42,124 bases of DNA, taken from positions 1-42,124 of the forward strand of contig CAXBOF010000001.1 of assembly GCA_963977205.1 (NCBI GenBank), in the 5' to 3' direction. The first letter of the stretch is position 1. The number at the start of each line of letters is the position of its first letter. The position numbers and the translations under genes are program-made. The notes below the pieces were generated by a model. It was not told where the DNA came from, ran no database searches, and worked only from the letters and a program-made list of their open reading frames with translations. The stretch comes from an uncultured Phycisphaera sp. (GTDB lineage Bacteria > Planctomycetota > Phycisphaerae > Phycisphaerales > UBA1924). Shown here in pieces: positions 32 through 39,787 of this stretch.

Positions 32-878
32 ATGGAGGTGGTGTCGGCCTGGGCGACATTTTGCGGAACACGGCCCGACATCCGGGGGCGCTGCGAAGTG
101 GGGTCAACACTCATCATGCTGCTGACGATGCATGCGCTTCCGGCGCACACCCAGAGCCTGATGCTCGCGGCCATCTTTGCATCGGGTGCACTTTTGGCTG
201 CTCCCTCGGCCGAGACGGCCGCCGTGTTCTCCGAGTTTGTGGCTGCGCATGCTCCTGGCCTGTGCGGCGACTGTGCGCTGTTTGGGGCGGTTCGTGCTGT
301 TGCTGCTGGGCGTCCACCGGGTCCGCTGTGCCGGGTCTCCCGAATGTGAATCCGAAAAGTGCGCGGTGAGACCGCCACAACTGGACATGCAGCCCGGCCG
401 ACACGTCGTGGCTCCCAAGCTCCGGGGTCGCGCCCGCCGACTTGCCCGCAAACGACCCCGTGCACCACCCCGGGCGCATCTGATAAAATCAGTGCCTGCA
501 CTGGATACATTTTCTATTGAAGAGCTTGTGGAGCGGGACCGCCGGGGACACACTGTGCTGCATGCGCTGGCGCGCGAGGGACGCCCCCGACTGTTTCTTG
601 CCGTTCTTCAGCGACTTCCGCCGCCTCTGCGTGGCCCCTTTCTGAATGCCCAGACGACTGCAATGGGGCCGGGGTGCGGCCGACGGACTGCGCTCCACAT
701 GGCTGCGCTCTACGGCCGAGTTGGGATGTGCAGGCTGCTGGTGGAGGCGGGCGCCAACCCCAGACTGCGGGACGAAAAGAATCGGACCGCATACGAGATT
801 CTGCGCTGCATCGTAGAGGCGGCAGAGCGGGACTTTAGCGAAGCCGTGAGCCAGCGCCGGATGGCTACGGCCGCATAA
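32..878 (+). CDS. Ankyrin-repeat protein; model join(32..334,393..426,493..878); may be 5'-partial at window edge
   Basis: Exon 493..878 translates to ANK repeats (GHTVLHALAREG...; RTALHMAALYGRVGMCRLLVEAGANPRLRDEKNRTAYE). An upstream high-GC3 hydrophobic ORF from ATG 32 (frame 2) joins frame 0 in phase through GT..AG introns 335..392 and 427..492. The upstream exons are less certain than the ANK exon. Confidence 0.55.
335..392 (+). other. Intron, 58 nt (ankyrin gene)
   Basis: GTCTCC...ATGCAG, phase 0. Removes the frame-2 stop at 347..349 and links to frame 0. Confidence 0.45.
427..492 (+). other. Intron, 66 nt, in-frame and retainable (ankyrin gene)
   Basis: GTCGCG...CTGATaaaatCAG, phase 1. 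Retention would only insert the Arg-rich RARRLARKRPRAPPRAHLIKS. Confidence 0.4.
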
Positions 879-909
879 ATCAGGCCAGGCGGAACTGTTG
901 CAGGGCCGG

Positions 910-1989
910 TTACGTGAAGGCGAGCCCTTTGTCTCCCGCGCTCTCGTCACCCGGCCGGAATGCGCGCCAGCACATCGACAGTGCAAACGGCAGGAAGAAT
1001 GCAAAGAACGTACTGCCGATCGCAATGATTTCGTGCTGGCTTTCGGACCAGCACATGAAGTTCGGTGCAAACTCGTGGCCATTCTTTCCCGCGTCGCCGT
1101 CGGTCCAGAACGTGTGTGTCGTCACAAAGAGCGCAAAGGCTCCGAAAATGACAAACACGAAGCACACCGCTGTGATCACCATGTGGAGGACGCGGACGAC
1201 CTTTTCGAGACCTGTGTCACTCTGCGACTCGTCGTTTCCAGCCCTGGCAAACGCGGAAGTGAATCCGACAGAAAGCATCGCGCCTACAATTACGCCGTAC
1301 ACATTCATCCGCGCGTGATAGATGTCCTCCTGGAGGCCGGCGTCGGTCTGCACCGAGGTGTGAAACACGTCCTTGTTGTCGATCTTCAATCCGATGTTTG
1401 TCACAAGCCCCGCCATCGCCCCCAACAGGAGGACCGCGATGCCGTAAAAGCCCCAGAACCCCCAGAATGCGTTCGGATGGGTATCTTTCTTGATCGGATA
1501 CCCGCCGTGCCACAGGGCGGATATCGTCGCAGCCGCAAAAGTCCACGCGGCCATCGCGTCGAGCCCGGGGTTGCCCGCCGACCCAATCTCCATGATGGCG
1601 GGGCCCTTGAGAATGGTCGTGGTGTCGTAGGCGCATTTCTCCTGGTTCCCATTTGCGTCATTGGGAATTTTGTACGCAGCGTGATCCTGGACCGTCTCAA
1701 CAAACATCCAGAGGACGAACGCCGCAAACCCGAACATTGTTGCCATCATGATCCACCCGCGTGGGTCTTTCAGACGCTCTTTCAGACCCGCCATTCCCTT
1801 CTTTGCGTGCCAACACGCGGCGGACACAAGCATGCCCAAAGCAATCATGATGAGGCCGACCCACGAGAGCCAATGCACCGTGTCATCCGACTTTAGGTGG
1901 GACCGGACGCCAACGCCGCTGGCAAAAAGGATGCCGCCCACGACGGCGCCAGTCCCCGCAAGATCGTACCCATCTAGACTGCTGATCAT
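910..1989 (-). CDS. Multi-pass membrane protein, 359 aa, unknown function
   Basis: Uninterrupted ATG-to-stop ORF with high GC3. Several hydrophobic helices (WLSWVGLIMIALGMLVSAACW, FWGFWGFYGIAVLLLGAMAGLV, VITAVCFVFVIFGAFALFV). TATAAG lies 33 nt upstream of the ATG. Confidence 0.8.
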   Translation of the reverse strand: MISSLDGYDLAGTGAVVGGILFASGVGVRSHLKSDDTVHWLSWVGLIMIALGMLVSAACWHAKKGMAGLKERLKDPRGWIMMATMFGFAAFVLWMFVETVQDHAAYKIPNDANGNQEKCAYDTTTILKGPAIMEIGSAGNPGLDAMAAWTFAAATISALWHGGYPIKKDTHPNAFWGFWGFYGIAVLLLGAMAGLVTNIGLKIDNKDVFHTSVQTDAGLQEDIYHARMNVYGVIVGAMLSVGFTSAFARAGNDESQSDTGLEKVVRVLHMVITAVCFVFVIFGAFALFVTTHTFWTDGDAGKNGHEFAPNFMCWSESQHEIIAIGSTFFAFFLPFALSMCWRAFRPGDESAGDKGLAFT

Positions 1990-2022
1990 GGTCTGCTATA
2001 GTGAGTCGACTGGGTGCCCTTT

Positions 2023-2100: not shown

Positions 2101-2787
2101 ATGGACCCGAACGATCACGTTTTCGATGCTGGCGGTGCTGCAGATGCGCCGCCCGAGCTGTTTCCGCTGTACACCACGTCTGGGTCTGTGACGGACCGGT
2201 CCGAGAATCTGTCGTGCTCCTCCAGCTCGTCCTTCTGCTACCTGTGCTCGTTTGCGGGCGAGACGGGCATGTCGGTGGACATTCGGGCGCACATCCGGGA
2301 CCTCTCGAAGCGCGGGTTTGAGCTTCCGGCCATTGCGCGGGCCGTGGCCAAAATCTACAAGCGCGACATCCAGCCGCACGTCGAGCATGCCCGAATGGAC
2401 GGCACGGTGCGGTCCCCGATTTGCAGTCTGCCCCCGAGTCTCACCCTGCCCCCAGACGGTCCAGTCGCCCGAGTGGTCGATCGAGGCGATTCACCGCCAC
2501 CTCAGCATGGGCGGCGAGTTTTCCGAGACGGTGTTTCAGGTGCGGTCGGTGCGCTTCCCCGACTCTGGGCGCCGTGCTGACGCTGCCTGCAGGATTCGGT
2601 GGTCAAGAACATCTTCACGCACCTGATTGTGCGACTCAACCAGCGCGTGCTGACTGCAGACGGCCATGTGGACGAGGGCGCACGAAAGGCTCTCCTGGAC
2701 ACCATCGGCGAGCAGACCAAGTGGCGGCGGTCGATGGAGGTTGGGGATTCGGGGCCGGGGGCGGGCACCAAGCGCAAGAAGAAGTAG
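2101..2787 (+). CDS. Hypothetical protein with basic C-terminal tail, 3 exons join(2101..2406,2456..2539,2593..2787), 231 aa
   Basis: The coding signal moves frame 1 -> 2 -> 1 across two GTGCGG..CAG introns, all junctions phase 0. C-terminus GAGTKRKKK is NLS-like. TATAAG lies 26 nt upstream of ATG 2101. Confidence 0.7.
2407..2455 (+). other. Intron, 49 nt
   Basis: GTGCGG...CTCACcctgcccCCAG, phase 0, frame 1 -> 2. Confidence 0.7.
2540..2592 (+). other. Intron, 53 nt
   Basis: GTGCGG...CTGACgctgcctgCAG, phase 0, frame 2 -> 1. Confidence 0.8.
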
Positions 2788-3857: not shown

Positions 3858-4130
3858 ATGCGGGGAACGGGGCTTCTGGTCGCCTCCATTCTTGCCTCTT
3901 CAGTTTCACTCACGCACGGCAACCTCTGGTCGGGCGGTGTCTCGCTCGTCTTTGCGGCGCTTGTTCTCGAGCTTGCGCCTGAGCTGTCCCTGTCAGTCTC
4001 GCCTGCCCGACTGTCTGTGCTCCTAGAGGCGGTTGCGTCTGTGGTAGTTGTCGCAGCCGACGTCGACCACTACGCCGTGTTGGGTCTGGTGCTTGCGCTG
4101 GCATGTCTGGGGGGATCGAAGACCAAGTAA
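3858..4130 (+). CDS. Small hydrophobic ORF, 90 aa (possible membrane protein or leader exon of the next gene)
   Basis: ATG lies 26 nt downstream of the bidirectional TATA at 3825..3831. Three hydrophobic stretches, moderate GC3. Overlaps the ATG of the next gene by 28 nt. Confidence 0.3.
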   Translation: MRGTGLLVASILASSVSLTHGNLWSGGVSLVFAALVLELAPELSLSVSPARLSVLLEAVASVVVVAADVDHYAVLGLVLALACLGGSKTK

Positions 4131-5752
4131 AAGTGGTCCTCGGCGCTTTTGTGGAGAGTCCGCAGTATCGCCTTGCCGTCGAATCGTGGCAGCTTTCGAC
4201 GGTCGCGGGTGGCATCGATGTGGCCGACGGCTCGCCGGTTGATGTTCGCGGCGCAGCCGAATTGGTGCGTCACGCCCGATGTGCGGCGCCGGCTGCGTGC
4301 TGACCCTTTCCAGGTGCACTCGATGGTGCGGCAGCTGGTGCTGATGGGCTTTTGTGTGATTCAGGACGGCGTGGTGGACCCGATGGCCGCCATCTCGTGG
4401 GACAAGCAGAAGCGCGAGTGGGTTGCCCCAGTCAAGGACGAGGCTGAACCGCCCACCGTCTGCGTCTTCATGGCGCCGCTTGTGCATTCGAATGGCACTA
4501 CGCTCATGTCGTACGGCAGCGCCGCGCTGCCGGTGTGGTACCACCTGTCGGCCCTCACCGAAAATATGCGGCGGCGGGATGCGTTCAACTCGGCGCACAC
4601 CGTGTTCACCTCGGTCAATCCGAGCATGACGCCCGGCGACTCGCTCACTCCGTCCTTCATTGCGGCGCGGGGGCGGGCCGTCGGGGCCGCCGATCCAGAT
4701 TATACCACGTCTGACCGCCGGCACGAGCTGCTCGGGGACCTGATGCGCCGGTCCAACGGGCTGCGGTCCCATGGCGATGTTTTTATGGCGGGCCAGGGAT
4801 TCCCGGTCGACTCGAGGGCACCCAAGCTCCACTCGGAGCATTTTGTCACCGACGGTAAGCACCAATTTATTTTGGTCCAATCGTGCACACGGCCGGCACC
4901 GAAATCTCGCGCCCCTCGTCTGAACTCCCAAATCATGCACACGGCCCGACACCCCCACCCCTGGTTGCCCGCAATCTTCTGCTCCTGTGTCGACCCCCAA
5001 ATCGTGCACACGCCCCGACACTGGACCCCGTTCGACTCCCAAATCGTGCACACGGCCCGACACCACTGATGGCTCTGCAGGGATGAGTTCGGTGGGCGAG
5101 GCGCGACACCTGCAGGCCCCCGTGTCGGACATGAACCGGCTGGTGAAGCACTACGTGCACTCGTTCTACCAGGCGCTCGGGGTACCGCCTCAAAAGCTCG
5201 GTGCGCCGACTCTTCCTTCCCGCGCCATCGCGCCTCTCACTGACTGTGTCGCCAGGTGAGAACGTCAACTCTGAACGCCTTGCGGGATCCGAGATGATTT
5301 CGAGCGAGGCGCTGTGGACTCACGAGGCTCGAGTGCGCGATGTCCGGGATGTTGTCAACGAAGCGCTTGAGGTTCTCGGCGTCTCGCTGCGGCCGTCGGT
5401 GCGATACCGCGTCCTGGTGCAGCATCCAGAGCTGTTTGATCCGGAGAAGTACACCGACCTGCTGGCGCACTCGCTCGGGGTGCCCACCGAGTACGTGGCC
5501 CAGATCCCGGTCGAGACGGATGAGTCGACCCAGCAGCAGCCACCCACGAACGGCCGTCGGGGTGGCAATGACCACGATGCCGCCATGCAGCAAGGATCGG
5601 GGTCCCACAAACGCTGTCGCGACGGGAAGTTCTGCCAGAACAAACGGGGGGGGCCCGTGAGCGACATCCGCACTATTAGAGAACCCCATGCCAAGTTGGA
5701 TAGGGGCGAGACGCGCGTTCCGGAGGAGAAGAAGGGCCGCAATTCGGAATGA
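4103..5752 (+). CDS. Portal-like protein (tentative), 4 exons join(4103..4264,4314..4854,5081..5200,5256..5752), 439 aa
   Basis: Frames 2 -> 0 -> 1 -> 2 are linked in phase by three GT..AG introns. The spliced peptide ...VKHYVHSFYQALGVPPQKLG|GENVNSERLAGSEM... resembles the conserved ..a.GvPp.llG...sN.. segment of HK97-type phage portal proteins (recalled, not searched). The gene model is more certain than the function. Confidence 0.6.
4265..4313 (+). other. Intron, 49 nt (portal-like gene)
   Basis: GTGCGT...CTGACcctttCCAG, phase 0, frame 2 -> 0. Confidence 0.75.
4855..5080 (+). other. Intron, 226 nt, carrying four copies of a 25-nt motif (portal-like gene)
   Basis: GTAAGC...CACTGATggctctgCAG, phase 1, frame 0 -> 1. 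The only long intron in the window. Confidence 0.75.
4877..5063. repeat. Four dispersed copies of a ~25-nt motif CCCAAATCGTGCACACGGCCCGACAC inside one intron
   Basis: Copies at 4877..4900, 4927..4952, 4996..5021 and 5038..5063, with 1-3 mismatches each. Start-to-start spacings are 50, 69 and 42 nt. Confidence 0.85.
5201..5255 (+). other. Intron, 55 nt (portal-like gene)
   Basis: GTGCGC...CACTGACtgtgtcgCCAG, phase 1, frame 1 -> 2. Splits the GVPPQKLG|GENVNSE motif. Confidence 0.8.
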
Positions 5753-6681
5753 TGGACGAACGGGATGGCACCATCGTGTATGACAATGCGCTCACCGTAG
5801 ACGGCCAGCCAATGTACCACTACGCCGAGAGCGATGCGGACGGGTACATCGATCCGAGCGAATACGAGCAGCCGTTGTCCCGCGAGGCGTTCCACGAGCA
5901 CCATGCCCCCGAGGACCGATCCATTCCGGTGGTGGACGCCTCGCCCGAGACGCCGGAACGGTACCCGGCTCCGCCACGCCGTTTCTCGGCCGTTCCTGAA
6001 TCCTGGAATCCTCGCCCCGATCCTCCGCCCAAGCCTCCGCCAATCGAATCGATGCCACGGCGCCGGTCGGGACGGAGCCCACTCGTCGGCGCTGTGGGCC
6101 TGCTGGGCCTGGTGGGGTTGATCGGCATGGTGCCGTCGGACGACTCTGGTCCGGGCACTTCGGCCTCGACTGGCGCCTCGTGCCTCGTGGGATCGATCGC
6201 GTGGTCTGCTGCCCAGACGGTTCCTGCGGGGTACCGAATCGCCGACGGGTCTGAAATTGTCGAGGAGGACCACCCGGCCCTCTTTGCCGCCGTGGGGTCG
6301 GCAGTGCCCGATTTGGTGGGCCGGTACGCCCGTGGGGGCCTCGAGCCCGGTGCCGTCCTCGCCGCCTCTGTGGATGTCGGCTCGTTCTCGGTGGCCATTG
6401 ACGATCCTGGTCACTCGCACGTTGACGCAGCGGGCTCGACGGTGCTCCGCGACGGCAAGTACGCTCTGGCGCACCTCTACACGTGAGACGGCCCGCCCGG
6501 CATCGCCCCGCCCCCTCTTATGCGTGCATGCAGGTTTACGACGGACGGGGTCAACCTCAAGGACGCCGGGCCATCTGTGGTTCCTGCGCAGACGGGGATT
6601 GCTGCGCGGGTAGAGGGCGGCACCGAGACACGGCCCGCCAGCGTCGTCCTGGTTCCCCTCATCTGCACCGGCGGTCCGTAG
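5749..6681 (+). CDS. Membrane-anchored phage tail-collar domain protein, join(5749..6482,6534..6681), 293 aa
   Basis: LVGSIAWSAAQTVPAGYRIADGSEIVEEDHPALFAAVGSAVPDLVGRYARGG fits the tail-collar pattern (G.I...a....P.Gw..cdG.......yP.Lf..iG...PDLrGrf..G). Exon 2 supplies ...VEGGTETRPASVVLVPLI, the ETRP......I end of that domain. TM segment LVGAVGLLGLVGLIGMV lies upstream. The ATG overlaps the upstream stop (ATGA). Confidence 0.8.
6483..6533 (+). other. Intron, 51 nt (tail-collar gene)
   Basis: GTGAGA...ATGCAG, phase 2. The apparent stop TGA 6484..6486 is part of the donor. Splicing restores the ETRP-containing domain end. Confidence 0.85.
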
Positions 6682-15847: not shown

Positions 15848-15867
15848 CCGTCTGCACAGGCGATGAG

Positions 15868-29854: not shown

Positions 29855-30937
29855 ATGGACTCGGGCACAGACTCGGACAGTTCGGCCGGGATGGTCGCGC
29901 CGTCTGGATGGCAGGATCTTGTCCAGATCGCGCCCGGGGTACACGCGGCCACCGGGCGGGACGGCAGAAGGGTGGTCATCAAGGCGTTTTTGCCCGATCA
30001 CGACTACCGAGATGCAAACCTGGCGGCCGCGGGCATTGGGGCGCTACTCTTGCCGGACCAGGGCAAATTCGATCCGAACACAGTTGTGCCAAATCTAGTC
30101 TTTACGGGCAGGGAACCTCGCCAGTACCCTCCCTGCAAAAGGCTCGGCACCAGCGGACTCGTGTACTGCGATGCCGAGCTGACTGACGAAGGAGTTGCAC
30201 TTCCAAACACTCGGAGGCGATCCGTCGTCGACGACGATACTGGCACGGAGTACGTCCCCAAAGCAATTCGCGTGCTCCCACTGCACACCCGTGACATTTC
30301 AGTCATCTCAGAGTGCCTGGAACAGTGCCGACTGCTCAAGCCGGGGAGCGAGGATGTCACGATTGTTTTTGAGTGGCTGTGCGACCTGGCCGAGACGCTC
30401 TCCGATTATGGGGTGCATCTGACCGACCTCAAGGCGGACAACATGGTCTGCACTCGGCCGGCGGGGAAGCTGCAGCCAAAGCTGATTGACTGGGATCAGG
30501 TTGTGCACTATGGCATTGGCGGGGACTACAGGCGCGAGGAGCCGCGTTCGTGCACCACCTTCTTCAACTACGTGCACCTGATGCTGGCGAATGACCCCGA
30601 CCGGCTCCACACGCTGCTAGAGTGCGGGGCGGCGCGGACGGTGTACGAGGCGGGACTCGCGACGCTCAAGTTAGTATTCGACCCATCGGGCCGCGCCTCT
30701 CCGGAACACCCGCCGGTGGCCAAGGCATACCTGCCCCTCGAGGCGCTGACGACTGCCAACATTGCCATGTGCGACCCTCGGCCGCCCACCGTCCGGCCTG
30801 CGCTGACCGCCGACCGCAGGTACGCGATACAGTACGGATGGAACCTGCCGCCCGAATTTGGAAACCTCGACATGGAGTACACGTGGGCGTGGGTCGCAGT
30901 AGATCCGACGTTTGCAGCTGCACCCATGGCGCTATAA
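29855..30937 (+). CDS. Protein kinase-like protein, 360 aa
   Basis: RVVIKAF (VAIK-like Lys), VHLTDLKADNMV (HxDxKxxN catalytic loop), KLIDWDQ (DFG-position). Start moved to ATG 29855, downstream of the TATA at 29830..29836. Confidence 0.75.
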   Translation: MDSGTDSDSSAGMVAPSGWQDLVQIAPGVHAATGRDGRRVVIKAFLPDHDYRDANLAAAGIGALLLPDQGKFDPNTVVPNLVFTGREPRQYPPCKRLGTSGLVYCDAELTDEGVALPNTRRRSVVDDDTGTEYVPKAIRVLPLHTRDISVISECLEQCRLLKPGSEDVTIVFEWLCDLAETLSDYGVHLTDLKADNMVCTRPAGKLQPKLIDWDQVVHYGIGGDYRREEPRSCTTFFNYVHLMLANDPDRLHTLLECGAARTVYEAGLATLKLVFDPSGRASPEHPPVAKAYLPLEALTTANIAMCDPRPPTVRPALTADRRYAIQYGWNLPPEFGNLDMEYTWAWVAVDPTFAAAPMAL

Positions 30938-31109
30938 GGATTAGACACGCCAGTGCCAACCGCGCGCCCTCTATGGATGATGCAACAGAGTGCAATCTGC
31001 TGTGCAGAGCGCTTGCGCGATGGGCGTGGGTCACAGTAGATCCGACGTTTGCAGCTGCACCCATGGCGCTATAAGGATTAGACACGCCAGTGCCAACCGC
31101 GCACCCTCT
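30884..31109. repeat. 89-bp direct duplication of the kinase gene 3' end plus downstream sequence
   Basis: 30884..30972 and 31021..31109 differ at 2 positions. The spacer is 48 nt. Confidence 0.9.
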
Positions 31110-31141
31110 GTGAAACAGGGCAGAAGCATCCCCGCTTTCAG

Positions 31142-32448
31142 ATGGAAAAGAAGACGTACATCATCTCATGGAACGCCATCGCGGCGGCGATCCACTTTGG
31201 CGTCGCAGGATTCGTAATCTCGGAGGTCGCCGGCGGCGCTTTCCGGGTGCCAGTGCATCCGCTGACGCTCGCTCCAGGTGTACCAGCATCCGTGGGAGGC
31301 CCCCTTTGTCGTCCAGTATTCCCAGTGGAATCAGACGGGCGATGAGCGGTGCTCGGCCGAATCCCAGTGCCTCATCGCGCAAGCCTCGGTGCGCAAAACG
31401 CGTCTGCCAGGGCGCGCCCGTCCTGACTGGACCACTTCCGCAGATTGACTGGGGCACGGCCAATGTCGGCATGATCGTGGGTCGGATGCCCTGCCGCCAG
31501 CCCGCCCGCCCTGACGCGCTGCAGGTGCCATTCTTCAGCGTCATCTCCGGGGCCCATCATGCCGCCGTCGCCGTGTGGGTCGGTTGGGAGGGGGTCGATG
31601 CCTACCTCAAAATGGCCAAACGGGGCAACTGGCTGCGGGCAGTTGACTATGCACTCTCGTCGTCCCTGATGCTCGTCGTCACATCCATCCTGTTTCGGTC
31701 GCCGCCCGACGTGCCAACCCTGATGCTCGTGGCTGCAGTCCAGAGCGCCATCATCCTCATCGGGTACCTCCTCGAACGACTCCAGTACCGCCAGACCACT
31801 ACGGAGGAAAGGCAACCGCTTTTATCGGGCCAGGGAGACGACATCTCTACAGTGGACACTGCTGCGATTCAAGGCGATTTGACCGCGGATACGACGTCCG
31901 GGAAGCAGGCCTTTGGCGTGTGGATCCCGTTTGCGGCGTCGATGCTGATTTACGCTTTGGTGTGGACCAGCCTCCTGATCCCTTTTCACTACGCGGTGGA
32001 AGATGCGCCGACGGCGGTGGTGATTTTCATTGCGAGTCTTGCGGCACCCGGTGCGCGGCGAGGTCTGACTGTGGCCGCTGCAGGTCTACCTGGTGGCGAC
32101 GTTCACGCTCTTCCCGATCGTGTTTGTGTTTGGGGCGCCGGGACTGGGTCGCGAGACGGGCTTTCTGATTCTGAGCATGCTTGCCAAGGTGGGCAGTCCT
32201 GTGGCGGCACTGCGGCGACATTGCACGCTGACCGCGGCGCCCAGGTTCCGCTTCTGATGCTCTTTTACTTTGGGATTGTGGCGCGGTCGGGGACGGTTGT
32301 GTTCGAACGGCTGGAGGGTGCATTCAACACGACCGGCTCGTCCTCGTCCGCCAGCGACACCGAACTGTACATCGCGTTCGGCGCCTCTATTGCCGTCGTG
32401 ACCATCGTGGCCATCCTGATGTGGGGGACCAGGCCGAACCGAAAGTAG
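31142..32448 (+). CDS. Heliorhodopsin, 6 exons join(31142..31225,31278..31388,31444..31476,31525..32040,32084..32188,32245..32448), about 350 aa
   Basis: The spliced product aligns by eye with heliorhodopsin 48C12 (recalled from memory). AIHFGVAG matches GVFHLLQ. SGAHHAAV matches SALFHFIV. NWLRAVDYALSSSLMLVV matches NIFRWVEYSLSSSVMIVL, with Asp at the counterion position. RETGFLILSMLAK matches GERAYIVLSLVAK, the Schiff-base Lys (codon 32186..32188). That lysine exon is in a different frame from the long track ORF. The junction at 32017..32083 is unresolved. Confidence 0.85.
31226..31277 (+). other. Heliorhodopsin intron 1, 52 nt
   Basis: GTCGCC...CTGACgctcgctcCAG, phase 0, frame 2 -> 0. Confidence 0.7.
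31389..31443 (+). other. Heliorhodopsin intron 2, 55 nt
   Basis: GTGCGC...CTGACtggaccacttccgCAG, phase 0, frame 0 -> 1. Confidence 0.75.
31477..31524 (+). other. Heliorhodopsin intron 3, 48 nt, in-frame and retainable
   Basis: GTGGGT...CTGACgcgctgCAG, phase 0. Removal deletes VGRMPCRQPARPDALQ and gives VGMIVPFFSVISGAHH, which aligns with the heliorhodopsin TM2 region. Confidence 0.65.
32041..32083 (+). other. Heliorhodopsin intron 4, donor unresolved (GC-AG 43 nt shown; GT donors at 32017 or 32020 are alternatives)
   Basis: Acceptor CTGACtgtggccgctgCAG at 32083 is required to enter the frame encoding the lysine exon. Only phase-0 donors work. The consensus-looking GTGCGC at 32051 is out of phase. 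Confidence 0.3.
32189..32244 (+). other. Heliorhodopsin intron 5, 56 nt
   Basis: AAG|GTGGGC...CTGACcgcggcgccCAG, phase 0, immediately after the Schiff-base Lys codon. Returns to frame 1. Confidence 0.85.
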
Positions 32449-32587: not shown

Positions 32588-33532
32588 CTACCGCACCAGC
32601 ACTCCTGCGTCCTCGAGCATCCGCTGAAACTCGTGCGGGTACGGGATCTGCGTCATGCCCTGGAGTTCGTCGACCAGACGGCACGCGGGGGCCACTCGGC
32701 GGATCACCTCTGCACAGTCGGCTCCCAAGGGATACGGCCCAAGGCTGTACGAGCACGGCTTTGCGCTGCCGCACGCCACGCAGATTGCCTTGCACGCGTA
32801 GGGCGCCTGCTCGACAGTGTACTCTGCAACCATGCGCCGCAGCTCCTCGACTTGTTCCGGAGTCTTGGGCGGACCTCGGTGCAGCGGACCGTCCAACTGC
32901 GCCCGGCATACGGCGGGCACCGCTTCGGCAATGCCGTGTTCTCGCACGGCCTCAAGGTACTCGGCCCAGTGCGGGCTCAATCTCAGCACCGTGAGCGACG
33001 AACTACCGTCGACCATAGTCTCCCAGTTCAGCCCCACAATCATCCGCCAGAGCAGCGCTGCGGCGCGACGGTCCAACGCAGTCGCCGTTTCCAGCGAGAC
33101 GTGCGTGTTGGTGACCAAAAAGCCGTTCCTCCGCTCGTCCGGCCGGCCCGCGGTGGGCTCGAGGAGCAGGCCCGCCCCAGGGGACAACCCAGACGGCTCC
33201 CTGATGACCAGCGCAAAGCTCGCCGAGATCTTGCCCGCGTCGCCATCCTGCACGGGCACGCACACCATGTGCCCAGCCTTGGTATCCTCAAACTCGGGAG
33301 CGTCCGCTTCGCCCCCAGGCTCGGTCCTGGCCATCGTCTCGGCGCTGCACACTGACGAACCCGTGTCGGTGTCGGTCGAAACGCCGCCCTCGTCCTCGGA
33401 GCTGGACGTCTCCGATTCAGACTCTGACGATTCAGGCTCTGACGAGTCGCACCGCTTGAACTTCCGGCGTCCATCGCCGCTCTTGGCCTTCCTCTTGAGC
33501 GTCCGGCGGCGCTGTTCACAGAGTGGCGGCAT
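32588..33532 (-). CDS. Hypothetical nuclear protein, 314 aa
   Basis: Start at ATG 33532 (MPPLCEQRRRTLKRKAKSGDGRRKFKR, NLS-like), followed by an acidic Ser-rich tract (SSEPESSESESETSSSEDE) and a globular C-terminal region. The rest of the 561-aa track ORF is antisense to the RING gene. Confidence 0.65.
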   Translation of the reverse strand: MPPLCEQRRRTLKRKAKSGDGRRKFKRCDSSEPESSESESETSSSEDEGGVSTDTDTGSSVCSAETMARTEPGGEADAPEFEDTKAGHMVCVPVQDGDAGKISASFALVIREPSGLSPGAGLLLEPTAGRPDERRNGFLVTNTHVSLETATALDRRAAALLWRMIVGLNWETMVDGSSSLTVLRLSPHWAEYLEAVREHGIAEAVPAVCRAQLDGPLHRGPPKTPEQVEELRRMVAEYTVEQAPYACKAICVACGSAKPCSYSLGPYPLGADCAEVIRRVAPACRLVDELQGMTQIPYPHEFQRMLEDAGVLVR

Positions 33533-33712
33533 GCAGAATTGTGACCCGGTTCGATTTCTGGGTTCACGATGCGGATTCGCGGTCTTCTGCAAACCGGGCA
33601 CAGCAGCCCGATCGTCCGGTCCCGCCCTAAGGTCGGCGCAATCCTGGCGAATGTCCAAAACCGGCCCAGATGTCAAATCTGGAATTCGAACCCGCCACAA
33701 TTTCAGTCTGCC

Positions 33713-34438
33713 ATGGAAGTAACCCCGCAGATGCTGTTCGAGGAGTCTGGCCTTGACGAGGGACAGCACGGCCCCCTGCTGCCGGCGCGGTGCAAGAGGA
33801 GCGCTTCCGAGTTCGATGCCGAGGCCGAACCCGAAGGGGGTGCTGCTGCCGAGGTCGGGACCGACGTGTACACGAACCGGGTCATCGCCGAGGTCGAGAC
33901 GGACTCTCCAGAGACGACGCTTGACCGGCGAATGGAGCAGCTTGCCGCTGCCGACGCGCAGCACGCAGCAGAGGCACACAAGAATCTTGACGAAGAGCAC
34001 ACGGAGCGGAGGAGGGCCGCTCATAAGGGACTGGACAAGGACCTGCTGGTGATTGCGCAGAGTCCTGGGCCGGAGATGAGCGGCAGGCTGCAGAAGCGGA
34101 TCCGGGAGGCTGACGAAGAGGAGCGAGAGGACGATCGGAAGCTGGCCATCGGAAAGGCCGCCATTGCCCATGCGCAGGGACGGATGCCGGATTGGCCCAC
34201 CGTGGCGAACCTTTTGCGCTGCCCCGTGCTCATGCAGAACACGGCGGATCCGGTCAGGCTCACATGCGGGCATACGGTGGACAGGGGCGTCGCTCGAGAG
34301 CTGTACGCCGCGTCGGAGGGGGTCTTTCCGTGCCCCGTCTGCAGGACGCCGAACAAAAGGCCAATCGCAAAGACGGGCGCCCGGAGGGATCCGCTGCTCG
34401 CGAGGCTGGTACGGGCGCTGGTGGGGAATGCGGTGTAG
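33713..34438 (+). CDS. U-box/RING-like E3 ligase-type protein, 241 aa
   Basis: C-terminal LLRCPVLMQNTADPVRLTCGHTVDRGVARELYAASEGVFPCPVCRTP carries the CP..M.DPV...CGHT U-box/SP-RING-type signature ending in CPxC. The N-terminal half is acidic and coiled-coil-like. Confidence 0.7.
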   Translation: MEVTPQMLFEESGLDEGQHGPLLPARCKRSASEFDAEAEPEGGAAAEVGTDVYTNRVIAEVETDSPETTLDRRMEQLAAADAQHAAEAHKNLDEEHTERRRAAHKGLDKDLLVIAQSPGPEMSGRLQKRIREADEEEREDDRKLAIGKAAIAHAQGRMPDWPTVANLLRCPVLMQNTADPVRLTCGHTVDRGVARELYAASEGVFPCPVCRTPNKRPIAKTGARRDPLLARLVRALVGNAV

Positions 34439-34479
34439 ACGCGCAGTGTAAAGGTTTGCTCGGGCGCCGCCGGGCAGGG

Positions 34480-34559
34480 TTCGTCGGCAGATGGCTCGAC
34501 ACTGGCACCAAGAATTATTTTATTCGATTCGTTGGCAGATGGCTCGACACTTGCACCAA
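34480..34559. repeat. Two 32-nt direct repeats flanking an AT-rich core in a convergent intergenic region
   Basis: TTCGTCGGCAGATGGCTCGACACTGGCACCAA at 34480..34511 and TTCGTTGGCAGATGGCTCGACACTTGCACCAA at 34528..34559. Between them lies GAATTATTTTATTCGA. Confidence 0.85.
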
Positions 34560-34581
34560 TCGGGCTGGCGCCACGGTATAA

Positions 34582-35940
34582 TCAGTCCGTCTCTACGACG
34601 GCGGTGATGCCGGGCCCGACTGTAAAGAGCTCGCGCCTGGTGGCACGCTGGGCGGCGACGAGGAAGTGCGTCTTCCGGATGCTTCCGTTTCCGACGACGT
34701 GAACGCCTGCTGGGGCCGTCATGCCCTGAGCCATGTCGATGGTGAAGCCGCCTGTGGGAGTTTAGCGGGCGCGCGCCCACATCCGCGCGGGCCTGGAAAT
34801 ACCGTGCCGGATGGGAACCACAAAGTGGCCTTCGAGCTCGAGGGGCTGCAGCGACACCTCTTCGCCAGTGCTGAGGATCGTGACGACGACGATGGCGTTT
34901 TCACCCATGACGACCGAGTCGGCCTCGATCTCTTCGCCGTCCTCGGAGATGACGCGCTCAAATCGGATGTCAGTCCCGTTGGTGAGCAGCGTCCCCCTTT
35001 CGGTGGCCCTGGCCTTGGTGTCAATGTCGACGCAGCCGTAGACGAGCCAGCCCTTGGTGTGGCCGCCCACAAAGCGCCCATCTTCGGCGTCCTTGCCGCG
35101 CTCCTTGGGGATGGTTTCGGGGTCGCTGGGGAGCAGCAGGATGCCCTCTCTGTCATTCTCGCGGAACTGCCGCACTGCTTCCCGCACATCCTCCCTGATC
35201 TGCCCGAGGATCAGAGCCCCCTCTGGCGGAACGGCAGCCCGACGCTGCCGGACAAGCTGATCCGCCAGCCCGCCCGGGATTTGCCATTCCTGGAGCTCGC
35301 TGAGGACGCGCTTCCAGTCGGGGTCCGTGTACCGCCGCGACTCTTTCAGCTCGATCGGGGGCGCCCTGCGCAGCAGAGGATGCGTGGATGCGGGCTTTCC
35401 ACCCCTCGGCTTGATCTGGCCCTCGTCGCCCACAAACAGGACGCGGACGCCGCCAAACGGCATCGACCTCGCCCGAAAGGTGCACCTCAGGATGGCATCC
35501 AGCTTGGCAATCTCGGCCGATGTCCACAGGCCAAACTCTTCGACGACAAGGATCTTTGGCGTCCCGGCGGGCGTATTGTACCACGGCTTTGATTTGGCAG
35601 TGCCGAGGGGAACCTTTGCCCACCATTTGGCGTCGATGGCGATCTTGGCCCACACGACGGCTTCTGGTGGGTAGCTGCCCCGCGGAACGGCGAGCCCGGC
35701 AATCGTCTGCCGGTGCTGCCCCAGCGACTTGTGGCTGATGGCAGTCACCATCACGCGGCAGCCGGCGTTTACCCAGCATCTGAGGACGTCTGCCACGACG
35801 ACGGACTTGCCAGTTCCGGCTTTCCCTATGAGCAGCACAACGCGGTGCGCCTCGAATAAGTCGCCGATCTGATCCGCTGCGGCCCTTTGCTCGCCCGACA
35901 GCACGGGGGGAGCCTGCGGAGTGGATTCGCGCCCGTCCAT
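34582..35940 (-). CDS. Pif1/RecD-like SF1 helicase, complement(join(34582..34751,34803..35940)), 435 aa
   Basis: Walker A LLIGKAGTGKSVV, motif II KILVVEEFG, MPFGGVRVLFVGDEGQIKP. Removing a 51-nt GTATTT..CTAAAC..CAG intron (phase 1) adds GFTIDMAQGMT...HFLVAAQRATRRELFTV, the C-terminal conserved motifs of this helicase type. Confidence 0.85.
34752..34802 (-). other. Intron, 51 nt (SF1 helicase gene, minus strand)
   Basis: Minus-strand GTATTT...CTAAACtcccaCAG, phase 1. Removes stop 34762..34764 and restores the helicase C-terminal motifs. Confidence 0.85.
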
Positions 35941-36093
35941 GTGCTCTGGCGGGGGAGACGCTTCAGCCGACGCGGGAAATTCTGGGCCCTCTGGATGTGA
36001 AAACTGCCAGGTAGCAGGCTTTTGATTTCAGAAACTGTGCATACATGCGGGCCTGCAAAAGTGTCAGAACTGCAGAGGCGCCGCGGCCGTCGT

Positions 36094-36447
36094 TTAGGGC
36101 ACCTGCGCTGCCCCCGTCTTTGGAGTGTCCTTCTTGACCTCGACGACGACCGAGTGCCCGGGCACGGCGATTAGCAGGTCTGCCCGCCCGGTTCCACAAT
36201 GGACGGGTCCATCAGCGCCGATCGGGGTGTACATGATGGGACAGGGCGCCTCGCGGGTCACCGAGACTCCGGGGAGCATGTGGCGGACCTCGGCGGCAAG
36301 GGCGGTGGAGATCCACTCTTCCCGGCAGGGGTAATCCTTGAAGGCGCGGGCGACGCGCCAGGCGCTGGCCTTGACGGCCCACTCGACGCGGGCAATCCAC
36401 GCATCAGTTCCTTCGTGCCCGCCCCGACCGAGTCCTGCCGCCGCCAT
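36094..36447 (-). CDS. PD-(D/E)XK (VRR-NUC-like) nuclease, 117 aa
   Basis: ...GTGRADLLIAVPGHSVVVEVKKD is a D..(n)..E.K nuclease-core pattern. I start at ATG 36447 (MAAAGLG...), 36 nt downstream of a TATAAT. The upstream part of the 420-aa track ORF is Arg-rich shadow sequence. Confidence 0.5.
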   Translation of the reverse strand: MAAAGLGRGGHEGTDAWIARVEWAVKASAWRVARAFKDYPCREEWISTALAAEVRHMLPGVSVTREAPCPIMYTPIGADGPVHCGTGRADLLIAVPGHSVVVEVKKDTPKTGAAQVP

Positions 36448-36576: not shown

Positions 36577-37224
36577 ATGGCGATTGTCGACCGTGTCACC
36601 AAACTCTCGGGCGATCCAATGGCCGATCTGTTCGCGGAGAAATCGGTGGCGGCATCGGTCCAGTCGGTCGTCCGGCAGTCGACTACGGCCGCAGGCACGC
36701 TGCGGAGGAACCCAAACATCACGTACGGGCAGGGCACCCTGACCAGGCTTTGCCACGGCGTCCCGATGGTGACGGTGGGCGTCGAGGCAGTGGCGTCTGG
36801 GCACAAGTATGGCGGTCCGACGGTCGTCGTCCAGTGCAACGCCGACGGCATGAAATCGGGCGTGACGGCTGCCCGGATTGTCGAGTCGGCAGGAATCAAC
36901 TTTGGTGGCTGGGTGTGCGTCGTGTGGTGTCCGCCGCATCGCCGTGCAGCAGTCCTCGCTGCGCCGGTGGGGTCGGGGGACGAGCTCTACTACCTCGTGT
37001 GCCTCTGCAACATGGCCGCCAACGGAGCCATCTCGGTCGGCGCCAACGTCGAGGCCGCCATGACATCGGTCGCAGGCCACGGGGGGCCCACCGGCATTCA
37101 TCCCGTCTACGGAAGGCAGGATTCCCCATTCTACAAGTGGTACCGGACGCTGACTCCGCGCCCCAATGGCTGGAGGACGTCGGCCGGCGCCCGCATCACC
37201 GTCGTCGGAGGATCTCCCGAGTAA
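36577..37224 (+). CDS. Hypothetical protein, 215 aa
   Basis: High-GC3 frame from ATG 36577 ([19 protein letters not shown]...). No motif recognised. The N-terminus could be extended by an unrecognised exon. Confidence 0.55.
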
Positions 37225-37417
37225 CTGCGCCCAACCAGGTCGCCAATGGGCAGCCGCGCGAGTAACAGAAAGCATGGAAAGCACCTTCGGGGAACGCAGA
37301 CGGAGAGCTGTTCTGCTTCCATGGAAAGCTGCGGAAAGCAGCCCTCGGCCAGCCATGGCGAATAAAACTGTGGCCTGCGAGAATGTACAGTGTGCGCACT
37401 AGGCTCTCTGGGGTCCG

Positions 37418-37873
37418 CTAGATGTTGATGCGCCAGCGGGCCCTCTTCCGGAACATGCGGTACCTGGCCGACACCCGCATGAGGTACCGCTGGCCGGGCG
37501 TGACGTCCTCGGGCTCTGAGAAGCGAACGTCGCCAGTCCAGTGGGGCGGAATGGCTGCGGCGGATGCACGGATATCGGCGTCGTATGATGCGGCGCGAAT
37601 CTCAAAGATGACGAGCCCGCCCGCCGGCGTCGCATTGCAGTACGGCTGCGCCAGGTGCCAGTGGCCCGCCTGCACCACACACGGAGTCGGTCCCATTGCC
37701 GTTGTCCCCCGCCACGCCGCCCGAAATACCCGCCCGACCCAGGGAACCCGTTTCAGTTGCTCCAGCCAAAGGTGCCGCCGCAGGCCCCGGCCGTGGGCGA
37801 CATTCGGGAGGCGGAATAAGTCGGAGTTAATCCGTCCAACACGAAAAAGTAACGCCCGATCCGCCGACCGCAT
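37418..37873 (-). CDS. Hypothetical protein, 151 aa, basic C-terminus
   Basis: ATG ORF with good GC3 (…GPTPCVVQAGHWHLAQPYCNATPAGGLVIFEIRAASYD…RMFRKRARWRINI). No domain recognised. Confidence 0.55.
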   Translation of the reverse strand: MRSADRALLFRVGRINSDLFRLPNVAHGRGLRRHLWLEQLKRVPWVGRVFRAAWRGTTAMGPTPCVVQAGHWHLAQPYCNATPAGGLVIFEIRAASYDADIRASAAAIPPHWTGDVRFSEPEDVTPGQRYLMRVSARYRMFRKRARWRINI

Positions 37874-38073
37874 GGCGGGATTTGCGCGGACTGATCCCGA
37901 GTCTGTCCGTCCGATGTCTGCATTGGGCCCCCTTTGACCGCGGCAGACAGACTAAATTCCGTTGGACGGACGGATTGCGACTCTGTCTGCGGCGCACTGG
38001 GGTTTGGACCTTGGGGTGGCGAGCTGGCGAGTTTGCAAAGTGGCTTTTGGATGAACACGGCCCGACACGCTTT

Positions 38074-39787
38074 CTACCCAATGCTGTTTGGAAAGAGTTC
38101 CTTGAACGCCTGAAGAAAGTTGGCGGGCGGGGACCCCGCAGGCGGAACCTCGGGCGACTTCCATCGTGCCCACAGCTCTACGGCCACGCCGTGCGCCTCT
38201 TCGGCCGTCGTCTCCACAAACCGGTCCACAGAGGCCACGGCCGCCTCGGGCGCCTGCGCGTCAAACGCACGCAGAAAGTGATCCAGCTCTGCCGCCCCAA
38301 AAGCCTTTGGATTCTCTGCAAACCGCGCCAGAAACCCATCCATGTCCTCGGGCCGGGCGGCGCCGTAAATTTCCGCTGCGGCGTCCTCGCCACTCGAAAA
38401 GTCGGGGCAGTCCGCATCGAGGCGAACGAGGGTGCTCGAATCGACTGTGGCCTCGGAACCAGCGTCCTCTGCCTCCGCCTCGGGCTCTTCGGGCGCCTCG
38501 TTCCCAGAGGCAACGTCGGACCAGGCGTCCGGCGGGCCGGGGTGGGTCATCGTCTCGTCGACGTGCTCGACACAATCGTCGCCGTCGCCACCGAGATGGC
38601 CGTCCCGACTGCCATCGTCCACCGTCGGCGCTGCGTCTCCATCGCATCCACCACCTGCAGTTGGGGTGAGCCATGCGTCGGCACGGAAACGGACAGGCCG
38701 CACCGAGGGGGTCAGGAGCATCGGACTCAGCCATAGGATCACTGCGAGCCGGAAGAGCGTCTCTACTGTTTCCCTGGTTGACATGACGTTTATAATGGGC
38801 GACTCTCGGGTGACAATGGCCGACGAGGCGAGTCCCGCCATCATCTGCACCAGAATGCCTGCGGGCGGCGTCGGCGGGTGGCGGGGGCGGCAGGGCGGGC
38901 ACCGAACCCAGACGGCCCACAAAGGGCACCTGAAGGGCGACTACGATGGCGGGCTCGATCAGACGGCGCTCCCACTCTTCGATGGGGCCGCGCTCGGCCT
39001 GCAGGAACCGGAGCACGACCACGATGGCCGCCCCGGCGCCACAGATGCCCACGAAAGAGGCGTACCGCAGATATCGCCAGGCGGTGCTCGTCTCGAAGGT
39101 TTCGGCCGCGCCCACGATGGCGCCGAGAGCCGCAAGGGGACCGTCCACAATCAGCAGGAGCCACTTGGTCGAGTCTGCATCGGCGTCGGTGTCGTGCCGT
39201 GTTCCGGCGACGAGGGCCAGATAGATGCCGAGGAGGACTGTGGACATGATGGCCGCCGCGTCGTACAGGCTGCCCGTGGGGTGCGGCAGGATGATCCGAG
39301 TGGCGCCGTCGGTGCCGACCGTCAGGTACGCCCCGAGCGCCGTGGCGGACAGTGTGACGGTTCCGGGGACGCCCGACTCGGACGGGGTCAGATCGGCCGC
39401 CCAGACAGGATCGGTGCCGCGAAAGAGGGCGACGGTGGCCTCGACGCCGTTTGGGAACTGGTGGGCGGGCGCCGAAAAATCAAAGACGACCGGTCGCTGC
39501 ACGGTGACTGCATCGGACGAGAGGGTGCACTTCAGGCCGGTGGGATGCCCCAGGTCGGTTCCGACGGGCCCGATGGGCGGCAGCGTGTGCAGCCGGCCAC
39601 CGTGGATCCACAGGGGACTGCCGACTGCGGCCGCGACGTCCGAGAGGGCGATTGGGACCTCTGTGATGGTGACGTGGTGGTGGTCGACCTCGATGACGGT
39701 GGGGGATACGGCGACGGCGGCGGGGTCGGGGACGAGGCCAAAGTCCATCAGGGCGAACCCCGCGGCCGTGAGGGCGTACAGCTGCAT
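38074..39787 (-). CDS. Multi-pass membrane glycoprotein with acidic C-terminal domain, complement(join(38074..38858,38908..39787)), 554 aa
   Basis: ATG 39787 (MQLYALTAAGFALMDFG, signal-like) lies 31 nt after a minus-strand TATAAG. The order is ectodomain, hydrophobic helices, a 49-nt GTTCGG..CAG intron (phase 1), more TM sequence, then an Asp/Glu-rich tail. This joins two track ORFs (38261..39862 and 38074..38922). Confidence 0.8.
38859..38907 (-). other. Intron, 49 nt (minus strand)
   Basis: Minus-strand GTTCGG...cgcccgCAG, phase 1. Joins two overlapping track ORFs into one membrane protein. Confidence 0.8.

Follow-up and report, generated by a model that had tools for sequence, protein, structure and literature searches.

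Introduction

The closest described systems to the element analysed here are the mirusviruses, in 1,202 genomes of which 37,703 spliceosomal introns have been catalogued (Medvedeva et al. 2025, Nat Microbiol; PMC12768974). The positions of these introns vary between close relatives, their branch motifs are of the CTGAC/CYSAC type, and nuclear replication of the viruses is predicted; in the orders Okeanovirales and Styxvirales the intron density averages 0.18-0.21 per kb (0.2 in Okeanovirales), with a maximum of 271 introns per genome (PMC12768974). The family Beta_01 of the Okeanovirales is described in the same paper by an average GC of 61%, roughly 12% Pfam-annotated genes and a CYSAC branch consensus, and its supplement names heliorhodopsin as a core mirusvirus gene and PIF1-like helicases as common. 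Here we analyse contig CAXBOF010000001.1 of assembly GCA_963977205.1, which is filed under an uncultured Phycisphaera sp.; its 42,124 nucleotides, hereafter called the window, are of marine metagenome assembly origin and have a G+C content of 64% throughout. An initial annotation had proposed that about 39 ultra-short introns of uniform signature interrupt its genes. We consider it probable that the window belongs to an uncultured large DNA virus from the sea with a GC-rich genome and 41 short introns, most likely a mirusvirus of the Okeanovirales type.

The element resembles Okeanovirales and Styxvirales as a large marine DNA virus with high GC, GT-AG introns, a CYSAC/CTGAC branch motif, intron positions that differ among close relatives, a heliorhodopsin together with a PIF1-like helicase, few annotatable genes and a predicted nuclear replication. 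It differs from them in density, since the window, with 1.47 introns per kb of coding sequence, reaches ≈0.97 per kb of genome, a value comparable only to their extreme genome with 271 introns, and in intron length, the mode of which is ≈52 nt in the window and ≈80 nt in these orders. The introns of the window are furthermore spread across helicases, rhodopsin, glycoproteins and small membrane proteins, whereas those of Okeanovirales and Styxvirales are concentrated in morphogenesis genes, and the window shows neither intron-borne genes nor introner-like similarity nor a gene of the capsid module. The initial estimate of roughly one intron per kb is thus confirmed, but the accompanying view that this lies far above any virus is outdated by the survey of Medvedeva et al. 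2025 (PMC12768974). For the mirusvirus episome and integrant of Aurantiochytrium limacinum (Collier et al. 2023 and Chung et al. 2025, as cited in PMC12768974) a density of 0.62-0.65 introns per kb (0.65 in the episome) and particles in the nucleus are given. This virus shares the high intron density, and its nuclear particles show that such introns can be processed correctly; it belongs to the Soporavirales, however, and has a cultured thraustochytrid host and experimental support, while the element of the window is known from metagenomes only. Pandoraviruses and some chloroviruses, likewise large DNA viruses with a nuclear phase and host-spliced introns, differ in being Nucleocytoviricota and in having only a few spliceosomal introns per genome (PMC12768974). 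Among cellular genomes, Cryptococcus and Plasmodiophora (median 55 nt) have introns of ≈50-60 nt with a CTGAC-type branch near the 3' end, and in Ostreococcus lucimarinus ACTGAC is found in 87% of the confirmed introns outside chromosome 2 (Irimia and Roy 2008; PMC2483917). The likeness of such short-intron protist and fungal genomes to the window is generic and gives a plausible picture of host splicing. As CTGAC and introns of ≈55 nt are shared by several fungi, Plasmodiophora and Ostreococcus, the signature is not specific and cannot serve as the fingerprint of a host for which it had been taken. Intron-rich mirusviruses were already published in 2025, and the window differs from them in degree, namely in density, length, spread over genes and the existence of graded relatives.

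Results

Signature and statistics of the introns

The curated model comprises 41 introns in 16 of ≈21 modelled genes; the genes are compact, lie on both strands and are separated by short spacers, and the introns, which span positions 2407-38907, amount to 5.5% of the window. The intron length has a median of 52 nt, with 36-37 of the 41 falling between 48 and 61 nt and a single case of 226 nt (4855-5080), close to the 33 and one counted before. Thirty-nine donors are GT and two are GC (9680-9731, GCGAGT; 24639-24689, GCGCGT), and in both GC cases the orthologous sites of relatives show a GT or GC donor. GTGCG opens 12 introns, where ten had been noticed. All acceptors are AG, with CAG in 39 of 41; the intron is preceded by G in 35 cases and followed by G in 37. 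The branch motif CTGAC occurs in 23 introns (about twenty had been seen) and CTGAC or CTCAC in 29, with the branch A 9-17 nt from the 3' end, while the relaxed form CT[GC]A[CT] is found within the last 30 nt of 36 introns with the branch A 9-18 nt from the end. Intron composition is C-rich (41% C, 12% A). The complete signature GTG[AC]G..CT[GC]AC N6-16 YAG, restricted to 40-70 nt, occurs 19 times in the window, 17 times on the plus strand, compared with 4.4 +/- 2.1 copies (maximum 11) in 200 dinucleotide shuffles, which is an enrichment of ≈4-fold with a strand bias in agreement with the gene strands. For CTGAC N6-16 CAG alone 32 copies compare with 18.7 +/- 4.6 in shuffles. This enrichment and four independent layers of comparative evidence bear out the proposal of numerous uniform short introns; nothing left of 2407 could be confirmed, where the range given before begins at 335.

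Retention of the introns would shift the frame in 33 of 41 cases and introduce an in-frame stop in 14; only three would be harmless, and 38 would thus shift the frame or add a stop if not excised. After splicing, every curated gene forms a single open frame with the exception of the giant glycoprotein gene near 24340, which limits the initial statement that all junctions are consistent in phase. The stops at 6484, 19558, 23271 and 34762, which are the ends of listed open reading frames (ORFs), each lie within a curated intron, as had been proposed. Judged by their termini, their branch motif and their dispensability in relatives, the segments have the features of U2-type (major) spliceosomal introns. 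Group I or II introns and inteins are frequent in the genes of phages and giant viruses, and the frame jumps might also be read as self-splicing introns of these groups, as inteins or as programmed frameshift sites. A size of 44-64 nt is far below that of ribozymes, though, the GT/GC-AG ends come with a branch motif whose distance from the acceptor is fixed, an Rfam scan of the window gave no family match, and the 33 lengths that are not multiples of three rule out inteins; the chance of such an explanation is practically negligible. The similarity among intron cores (maximum 0.455) is not above that of shuffled controls (maximum 0.476), and there is therefore no sign of introner transposons. 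Neither do the introns carry genes: all but one are ≤64 nt, the 226-nt intron is too short as well, and nothing of the shintron/MING-1 type is present.

Candidates were nominated by a self-written and self-trained gene finder that chains exons by codon log-odds and by weight matrices for donor, branch and acceptor. It was used for nomination only, and each candidate was then judged against related sequences. Taken alone, the finder over-predicts and fuses neighbouring genes, yielding ≈60 introns of which about 20 are false. Candidates at 6879, 7268, 14224, 14754, 16318, 16425, 16722, 17472, 18242, 18487, 18634, 24406, 25397, 29642, 29734, 35200 and 35914 were dropped, the segment being kept as coding sequence or the GT/AG being lost in relatives. 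Nine further candidates lie where comparable relatives are lacking and were not confirmed (271-317, 326-378, 480-539, 865-913, 33402-33452, 36628-36686, 39782-39830, 40027-40069 and 40503-40544).

Comparison with related sequences

More than ten near-identical contigs from other samples were retrieved by look-ups of exact proteins, and the relatives as a whole come from Tara, JGI and ENA marine samples. The close strains, all from independent marine metagenome assemblies, are L001, L002, L007 and L010-L015 with 96-99.9% identity and L003 with 92%. Intermediate relatives (L004-L006, L008, L009) have 62-72% nucleotide identity, and distant syntenic relatives are represented by the contigs L016-L019 and the proteins P0036 and P0038-P0040. 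L016, a JGI contig of 130 kb that carries P0036, has a G+C content of 57.6%. Together with L017-L019 it shows nearly the gene order of the window (genes A to L, the giant gene, M, N and heliorhodopsin), but nearly all genes are uninterrupted ORFs; synteny is kept despite the different G+C content (57.6% vs 64%) and a protein identity of 25-57%.

Open frames alone are weak proof of a splice model, because long ORFs arise in all six frames at 64% G+C. The frame jumps could accordingly be assembly or sequencing indels, or mark pseudogenes of a decaying endogenous viral element, with 'introns' that are chance pairs of GT and AG; the many such pairs and open frames of a GC-rich sequence, the about 20 false introns of our permissive finder and a true frame break near 24340 all lend themselves to this explanation. 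The variation among close strains does not fit it. Seven of 13 isolated indels with a length other than a multiple of three are located inside curated introns (at 4878, 6515, 9725/9730, 14615, 15835, 16016 and 16024), i.e. in 5.5% of the window (binomial P ≈2e-6). Of the remaining six, four map to short spacers between genes, one to the far left end of the window and one, a 2-nt deletion, to the C-terminal tail of gene D; exon indels of close strains are otherwise multiples of three or compensated. Substitution rates versus L003 are 0.056, 0.050 and 0.121 at the first, second and third codon position and 0.088 within introns, those versus L004 are 0.205, 0.146 and 0.425 at the three codon positions, and 26 of the 31 coding differences to L001 and L002 are found at position 3. 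The third-position bias points to purifying selection on the genes in the frames of the splice model.

More divergent relatives bear on the segments themselves. At more than 20 sites of L004, L008 and L009 conserved exons flank a GT/GC..AG segment of unrelated sequence and other length that has a CTSAY motif, and the introns 19522-19577, 22285-22343, 22391-22439, 22897-22946 and 24845-24896 are missing to the nucleotide in L008 and/or L009 with a continuous frame. The uninterrupted ORFs of distant relatives align with the spliced products over ≈36 junctions in single, essentially gap-free alignments. ORFs of L016 bridge two junctions of gene A, three of gene B (including that of the 226-nt intron), one each of genes C and E, two of gene H (with a micro-exon of five codons), one of gene K, two of gene L, one of the SF1 helicase and two of gene Y; P0036 bridges three of gene D, and ORFs of L017 bridge two of gene M and all five of heliorhodopsin (with a micro-exon of 11 codons). 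Over its full length of 2253 amino acids (aa), the spliced giant glycoprotein can be aligned to three uninterrupted homologues (2020-2127 aa; ≈40% identity), and the alignment is gapless at 10 of 12 modelled junctions. The Pfam family Heliorhodopsin (4e-14) covers residues 9-178 of the spliced protein and crosses three junctions, and in gene C residues 120-261, on both sides of the junction, match a tail-collar fibre profile of PHROGs. With the introns taken out, continuous and conserved proteins result, as is also seen for the SF1 helicase, whose C-terminus is continuous with an uninterrupted PIF1-like ORF of a relative. An apparently intron-less heliorhodopsin of L011 and L012 (a 368-aa ORF with a Pfam match) was rejected as a chance frame through the introns, both strains being collinear with the window.

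Splice signals, the non-coding and dispensable nature of the segments and the collinearity of the spliced proteins with uninterrupted homologues are apparent at the level of sequence from these comparisons. Indels or pseudogenes would not recur across more than ten assemblies made independently from samples of different oceans, nor would they explain that relatives hold an unrelated intron at the same sites or lack the intron exactly, that uninterrupted homologues span the junctions and that exon substitutions are strongly biased towards the third position. We therefore regard this origin of the frame jumps as very improbable.

Introns of genes A to L

Gene A (2101-2787, plus strand) has introns at 2407-2455 (49 nt, GTGCG..CTCAC..CAG; signal score 8.7) and at 2549-2592 (44 nt, GTGCG..CTGAC..CAG; score 10.9), and a single tblastn high-scoring segment pair (HSP) with an uninterrupted ORF of L016 covers both junctions. 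In gene B (4103-5752, plus strand) the first intron (4265-4313, 49 nt; score 11.2) is spanned by a single L016 HSP, and so is the second (4855-5080, 226 nt, GTAAGC..CTGAT..CAG), for which no other length would connect frame 3 with frame 1 and which carries an internal 13-nt deletion in L007; at the third (5201-5255, 55 nt; score 13.0) L004 has an unrelated GT..AG intron of 58 nt and L016 has none. The single intron of the tail-collar gene C (5812-6681, plus strand), at 6483-6533, has 51 nt and holds the stop at 6484. It is replaced by an unrelated 52-nt intron in L004, has lost 1 nt in L003, and its junction is spanned both by one L016 HSP and by the PHROG match.

Gene D (7661-11326, plus strand), the product of which we tentatively regard as a P-loop NTPase, is interrupted three times. 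The GC-AG intron at 9680-9731 (52 nt) has a 51-nt counterpart GCAAGT..TAG at the same site of L004, the intron at 9936-9984 (49 nt) shows a different frame shift in L004, and a frame shift of L004 is also seen at 10210-10264 (55 nt; score 12.1); the uninterrupted P0036 (1117 aa) spans all three. In gene E (11365-11872, plus strand) the intron 11450-11501 (52 nt; score 11.7) corresponds to a gap with a frame change in L004 and is crossed by one L016 HSP.

Upstream of gene H (14657-16353, plus strand) an intron-like segment at 14602-14654 (plus strand; score 10.8) ends 2 nt before the conserved ATG at 14657. L004 has an unrelated 56-nt GTGCG..CTCAT..CAG segment at this place and four strains have a 4-nt insertion inside; from its sequence and position it is probably an intron in the 5' untranslated region (5'-UTR) of gene H. 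Between the stop of gene G (14287-14289) and this intron lies a conserved open stretch in frame 3 without ATG (14295-14601). A GT..AG pair at 14224-14294, which is kept in L003 and L004, overlaps the conserved C-terminus of gene G, and alternative splicing that would extend gene G through it is possible. Within gene H, the intron 15813-15859 (47 nt, exact donor uncertain) leads from frame 2 to frame 1, has a 1-nt insertion in L003 and is divergent in L004. The next, 15997-16046 (50 nt; score 13.0), has internal 1-nt indels in strains and is followed by a micro-exon of 15 nt and the intron 16062-16116 (55 nt; score 10.4); one L016 HSP crosses both junctions and continues through the micro-exon. 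At the position of 15813-15859 the gene H homologue of L016 changes frame within a few nucleotides (17100-17150 of L016), which leaves no space for an intron and may reflect an error in sequencing, a frameshift or another end of the gene. The neighbouring genes I and J overlap by the stop/start ATGA at 16751-16754.

The membrane-protein gene K (18641-18138, minus strand) has an intron at 18366-18413 (48 nt) with an in-frame TGA; in L004 the conserved exons are separated by an unrelated intron of 56 nt, and one L016 HSP spans the junction. Exon 2 of gene K is antisense to the 3' end of gene J (18138-18265). Gene L (18692-19835, plus strand) has three introns instead of the two reported earlier. 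At the first, 18783-18838 (56 nt), L004 has a 69-nt intron and L016 a GT-AG segment of ≈50 nt (GTAAGT..CAG); since the distant L016 shares an intron at that site, this one is old. The second, 19002-19058 (57 nt, AAG acceptor), is matched by unrelated introns in L004 (55 nt) and L008 (54 nt) and absent in L016, and the third, 19522-19577 (56 nt), which has weak signals and holds the stop at 19558, is precisely absent in L008 and in L016.

To the right of gene L, in the minus-strand region 19905-21440, L003 and L007 (92-98% identical elsewhere) stop aligning at 19908-19915, and contig L001 ends at 19908. The break coincides with the 3' end of a long minus-strand ORF, and the G+C content dips to 58.6% between 20001 and 22000; the region looks like a strain-hypervariable gene that is at the same time an assembly breakpoint.

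Introns from the giant glycoprotein gene to the right end

For the giant glycoprotein gene (21495-28869, plus strand) twelve introns had been claimed, of which eleven are solid and one is doubtful. At the first five and the last four of the eleven the uninterrupted P0038-P0040 align without a gap. Intron 1 (22046-22097, 52 nt) is replaced by an unrelated 61-nt intron in L009. Intron 2 (22285-22343, 59 nt, TAG acceptor) is absent in L008 and L009, and introns 3 (22391-22439, 49 nt) and 4 (22897-22946, 50 nt) are precisely absent in both. Intron 5 (23232-23285, 54 nt) holds the stop at 23271, and unrelated introns with a GT donor in L008 and a GC donor in L009 take its place. For intron 6 the alignment with homologues favours 23664-23724 (61 nt) over an alternative donor at 23679 (46 nt), which corrects the initial placement; the frame shift at this site differs in L008 and L009. 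The doubtful segment follows at 24324-24366, a 43-nt GT..AG pair with weak signals that we left out of the total of 41; it may be a recent intron derived from an exon, the mark of a defective strain or an assembly error. Intron 7 (24639-24689, 51 nt) is of the GC-AG type (GCGCGT), has introns at the homologous site in L009 (GTGCGG) and L008 (GTAATT), and its splicing keeps frame 2 open. Intron 8 (24845-24896, 52 nt; score 13.6) is again precisely absent in L008 and L009. Unrelated L009 introns of 50 and 48 nt are found at introns 9 (26113-26165, 53 nt) and 10 (26426-26477, 52 nt), and at intron 11 (26724-26775, 52 nt) L009 has an unrelated intron and L008 one of ≈170 nt, which contains five telomere-like CCCTAA repeats and a duplicated 27-mer. 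A comparison with the 96%-identical L010 shows seven small indels between 25287 and 25380, with a net change of -30 nt, so that this part of the gene is hypervariable yet frame-preserving.

Gene M (29801-28913, minus strand) has introns at 29535-29587 (53 nt) and 29351-29400 (50 nt), each with unrelated introns in L008 and L009 and both spanned by an uninterrupted 257-aa ORF of L017. The intron of gene N (29855-30937, plus strand), at 30769-30819 (51 nt), lies at the same site in L008 and L009, where GT directly follows a conserved GCCAACATTGCCAT, and is divergent in sequence. A direct repeat of ≈92 nt (≈97% identical) at 30884-30975 and 31021-31112 joins the 3' end of gene N to the spacer before the heliorhodopsin gene.

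The five introns claimed for heliorhodopsin (31142-32448, plus strand) are all retained in our model; L008 and L009 show differing gap lengths there, and an uninterrupted 339-aa ORF of L017 spans them. The first three, at 31226-31277 (52 nt), 31389-31443 (55 nt) and 31477-31524 (48 nt, after the 11-codon micro-exon), are in addition covered by the continuous Pfam match. At the fourth, 32020-32083 (64 nt), a gap of 4 aa remains at the junction and the boundary may be off by ≤12 nt, and the fifth, 32189-32244 (56 nt), directly follows the codon that ends ..SMLAK. The intron counts given before for gene D, gene B and the SF1 helicase are equally unchanged.

In the SF1/PIF1-like helicase gene (35940-34582, minus strand) the intron 34752-34802 (51 nt) holds the stop at 34762; unrelated introns are present in L008 (53 nt) and L009 (52 nt), and the PIF1-like ORF of L016 aligns with aa 10-431. 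Next to this gene, the 99.9%-identical L011 has ≈100 nt in place of a block (33712-34570) that holds a RING-finger gene (33713-34438); the block is absent in L008 and L009 as well, and by this comparison represents a presence/absence polymorphism of a gene cassette. Gene X (37356-35963, minus strand) has an intron at 36053-36102 (50 nt; score 9.0), for which L009 has an unrelated 50-nt intron and L008 a frame change with another gap length. A 97-nt tRNA-Ala(cgc) that ARAGORN calls inside gene X (36292-36388, minus strand) was discarded as a probable false positive, no Rfam tRNA being found there. Gene Y (start uncertain, end at 38074, minus strand) is interrupted at 38859-38907 (49 nt), where L008 has an unrelated 57-nt intron, and at 38655-38703 (49 nt, GTGCGG..CTCAC..CAG), where L008 has a longer unrelated intron with the same acceptor and the length must be 1 mod 3; an uninterrupted L016 ORF spans both. 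At the right end (41778-42124) a 168-nt tandem repeat of 2.1 copies (93% identical) runs off the window and is part of a 625-aa ORF that continues in L011-L015.

Discussion

Gene content and nature of the element

Recognisable genes are few. A family match was obtained for four of ≈21 genes, namely heliorhodopsin, the PIF1-like SF1 helicase (AAA_30 and PIF1 of Pfam), the tail-collar protein and a RING finger. Pfam and PHROG searches with genes B, D, F, G, H, J and L and with large ORFs right of the window gave nothing useful, nor did a PDB sequence search with genes D and L or an IMG/VR scan. A HMMER search with gene D found five representatives only among 1.84 billion proteins, including the 1117-aa P0036, and gene D and the giant glycoprotein have only 3-5 homologue clusters each in databases of 5.8 and 1.84 billion proteins; these clusters include Tara Oceans genes from 0.22-3 µm and 0.1-0.22 µm filters. 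Gene D and its homologues P0034 and P0036 have no Pfam, PHROG or PDB match apart from a weak, sub-threshold one to AAA_29; a Walker A motif (GQPAAGKS) and a Walker B motif (VTDE) at suitable spacing, read by eye, are suggestive of a P-loop protein. AlphaFold models were unusable (pLDDT 47 for gene L from a single sequence, 33 for gene D from an alignment of five sequences). Pfam, PHROGs, PDB sequences and AlphaFold thus provide no backing for the names 'D5-like', 'portal-like' and 'protease-scaffold' that genes D, B and L had received.

The window might also be a piece of a picoeukaryote nuclear chromosome, or an integrated and domesticated virus, with ordinary host introns. Form and density of the introns are indeed like those of compact protist genomes, integrated intron-rich mirusviruses are known in Aurantiochytrium, and the longest contigs measure just 42-145 kb. 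On the other hand, no cellular housekeeping gene was found in the ≈52 kb of the lineage nor in the ≈40 kb of distant-relative contigs examined, nearly all proteins are orphans with 3-13 cluster members worldwide, and relatives were recovered from the 0.1-0.22 µm filter fraction. Virus-like, too, are the synteny that persists at 25-57% protein identity and different GC, the cassettes that vary among strains and the hypervariable genes for surface proteins. Gene density, orphan genes, small filter fractions and purifying selection therefore argue for a replicating virus and against both a cellular chromosome and a decaying insert, and we consider a chromosomal origin quite unlikely. For the same reasons (third-position bias, intact frames, the 0.1-0.22 µm fraction) the long-resident, decaying endogenous element that had been offered as one origin of the introns does not fit, whereas the other suggestion, transcription in the nucleus and use of the host spliceosome, appears reasonable from the sequence.

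Among viruses, assignment of the element to the mirusviruses is likely. Dense spliceosomal introns in large DNA viruses are reported only for Okeanovirales and Styxvirales, and the predicted nuclear nucleocytoviruses 'Ariadnavirales' and 'Manovirales' are without intron invasion; GC content, the CYSAC motif, low Pfam coverage and marine origin match the Okeanovirales family Beta_01. It is doubtful that the window instead belongs to a real intron-rich nuclear virus outside the mirusviruses, be it an undescribed lineage or a nucleocytovirus-related group with independent introns. Such a virus would account for the lack of a detectable gene of the HK97 module, for the extreme sparseness of homologues and for the failure of the 1170-aa P-loop protein, gene B and gene L to match anything in Pfam, PHROGs or PDB, and heliorhodopsin and PIF1-like helicases occur outside mirusviruses too.

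Several points weigh against an intron-rich mirusvirus of the Okeanovirales type. The case is comparative, and splicing is what we infer from the alignments. The giant-gene exon near 24340-24355 lacks 29 nt that are kept in L008 and L009 (≈18 aa in comparison to P0038-P0040), which breaks the frame, and the break is mended only by the weak candidate 24324-24366 at the cost of ≈24 codons. The length of 14602-14654 is unfit for an upstream coding exon in four of five strains, hence it is not an intron of a coding region. No HK97-type capsid protein, triplex, portal, protease or terminase was recognised with Pfam, PHROGs and PDB sequences in the window and the 9 kb to its right; the capsid module may be located elsewhere in the genome. 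The assignment to a lineage is based on composition, branch motif and gene content, as structural models were unusable, and the names of the strain contigs do not appear among the entries listed in the mirusvirus catalogue supplements.

Proposed mechanism and evolution of the introns

Introns of this type are removed only by the nuclear major spliceosome, and the viral genes would therefore be transcribed where the small nuclear ribonucleoproteins (snRNPs) of the host are available, i.e. in the host nucleus. The major spliceosome of the host would recognise a 5' site of the type G/GTGCG, occasionally with GC, together with a CTSAC branch site that precedes a CAG/G acceptor by 9-17 nt, and would excise the segment of ≈52 nt between them. 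In compact genomes, short uniform introns with a branch site near the acceptor are usually taken as a sign of "intron definition". The uniform signature of the window presumably mirrors the introns of the host itself.

Most introns other than 18783-18838 are absent from the lineage of L016, the relatives with 62-72% identity share most sites but lack five, and the window has the most. In the giant gene the number rises from none in P0038-P0040 through ≈7 in L009 to 11-12 in the window. These comparisons suggest that the introns are mostly young and still turning over; a stepwise gain towards the window would be the simplest reading, with which loss is also compatible as long as the tree is not rooted. 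The segment 24324-24366 of the giant gene may represent an 'intronization', in which a piece of exon was turned into an intron and compensates the 29-nt deletion. There is also a small chance that we are dealing not with a catalogued mirusvirus but with a separate and very sparsely sampled lineage of nucleus-dependent large DNA viruses, into which host-type introns are spreading almost in real time.

For the presumed mirusvirus of the window, the population and comparative data constitute independent support, obtained from sequences, for some abundant marine viruses that would depend on the nuclear spliceosome of their host for most genes. Prokaryote-style gene calling, as applied to these contigs in public databases, mis-annotates most of the proteins. 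The graded series of relatives with almost no, some and many introns, together with strains from all over the world, is a natural system for the rate and the route of intron gain.

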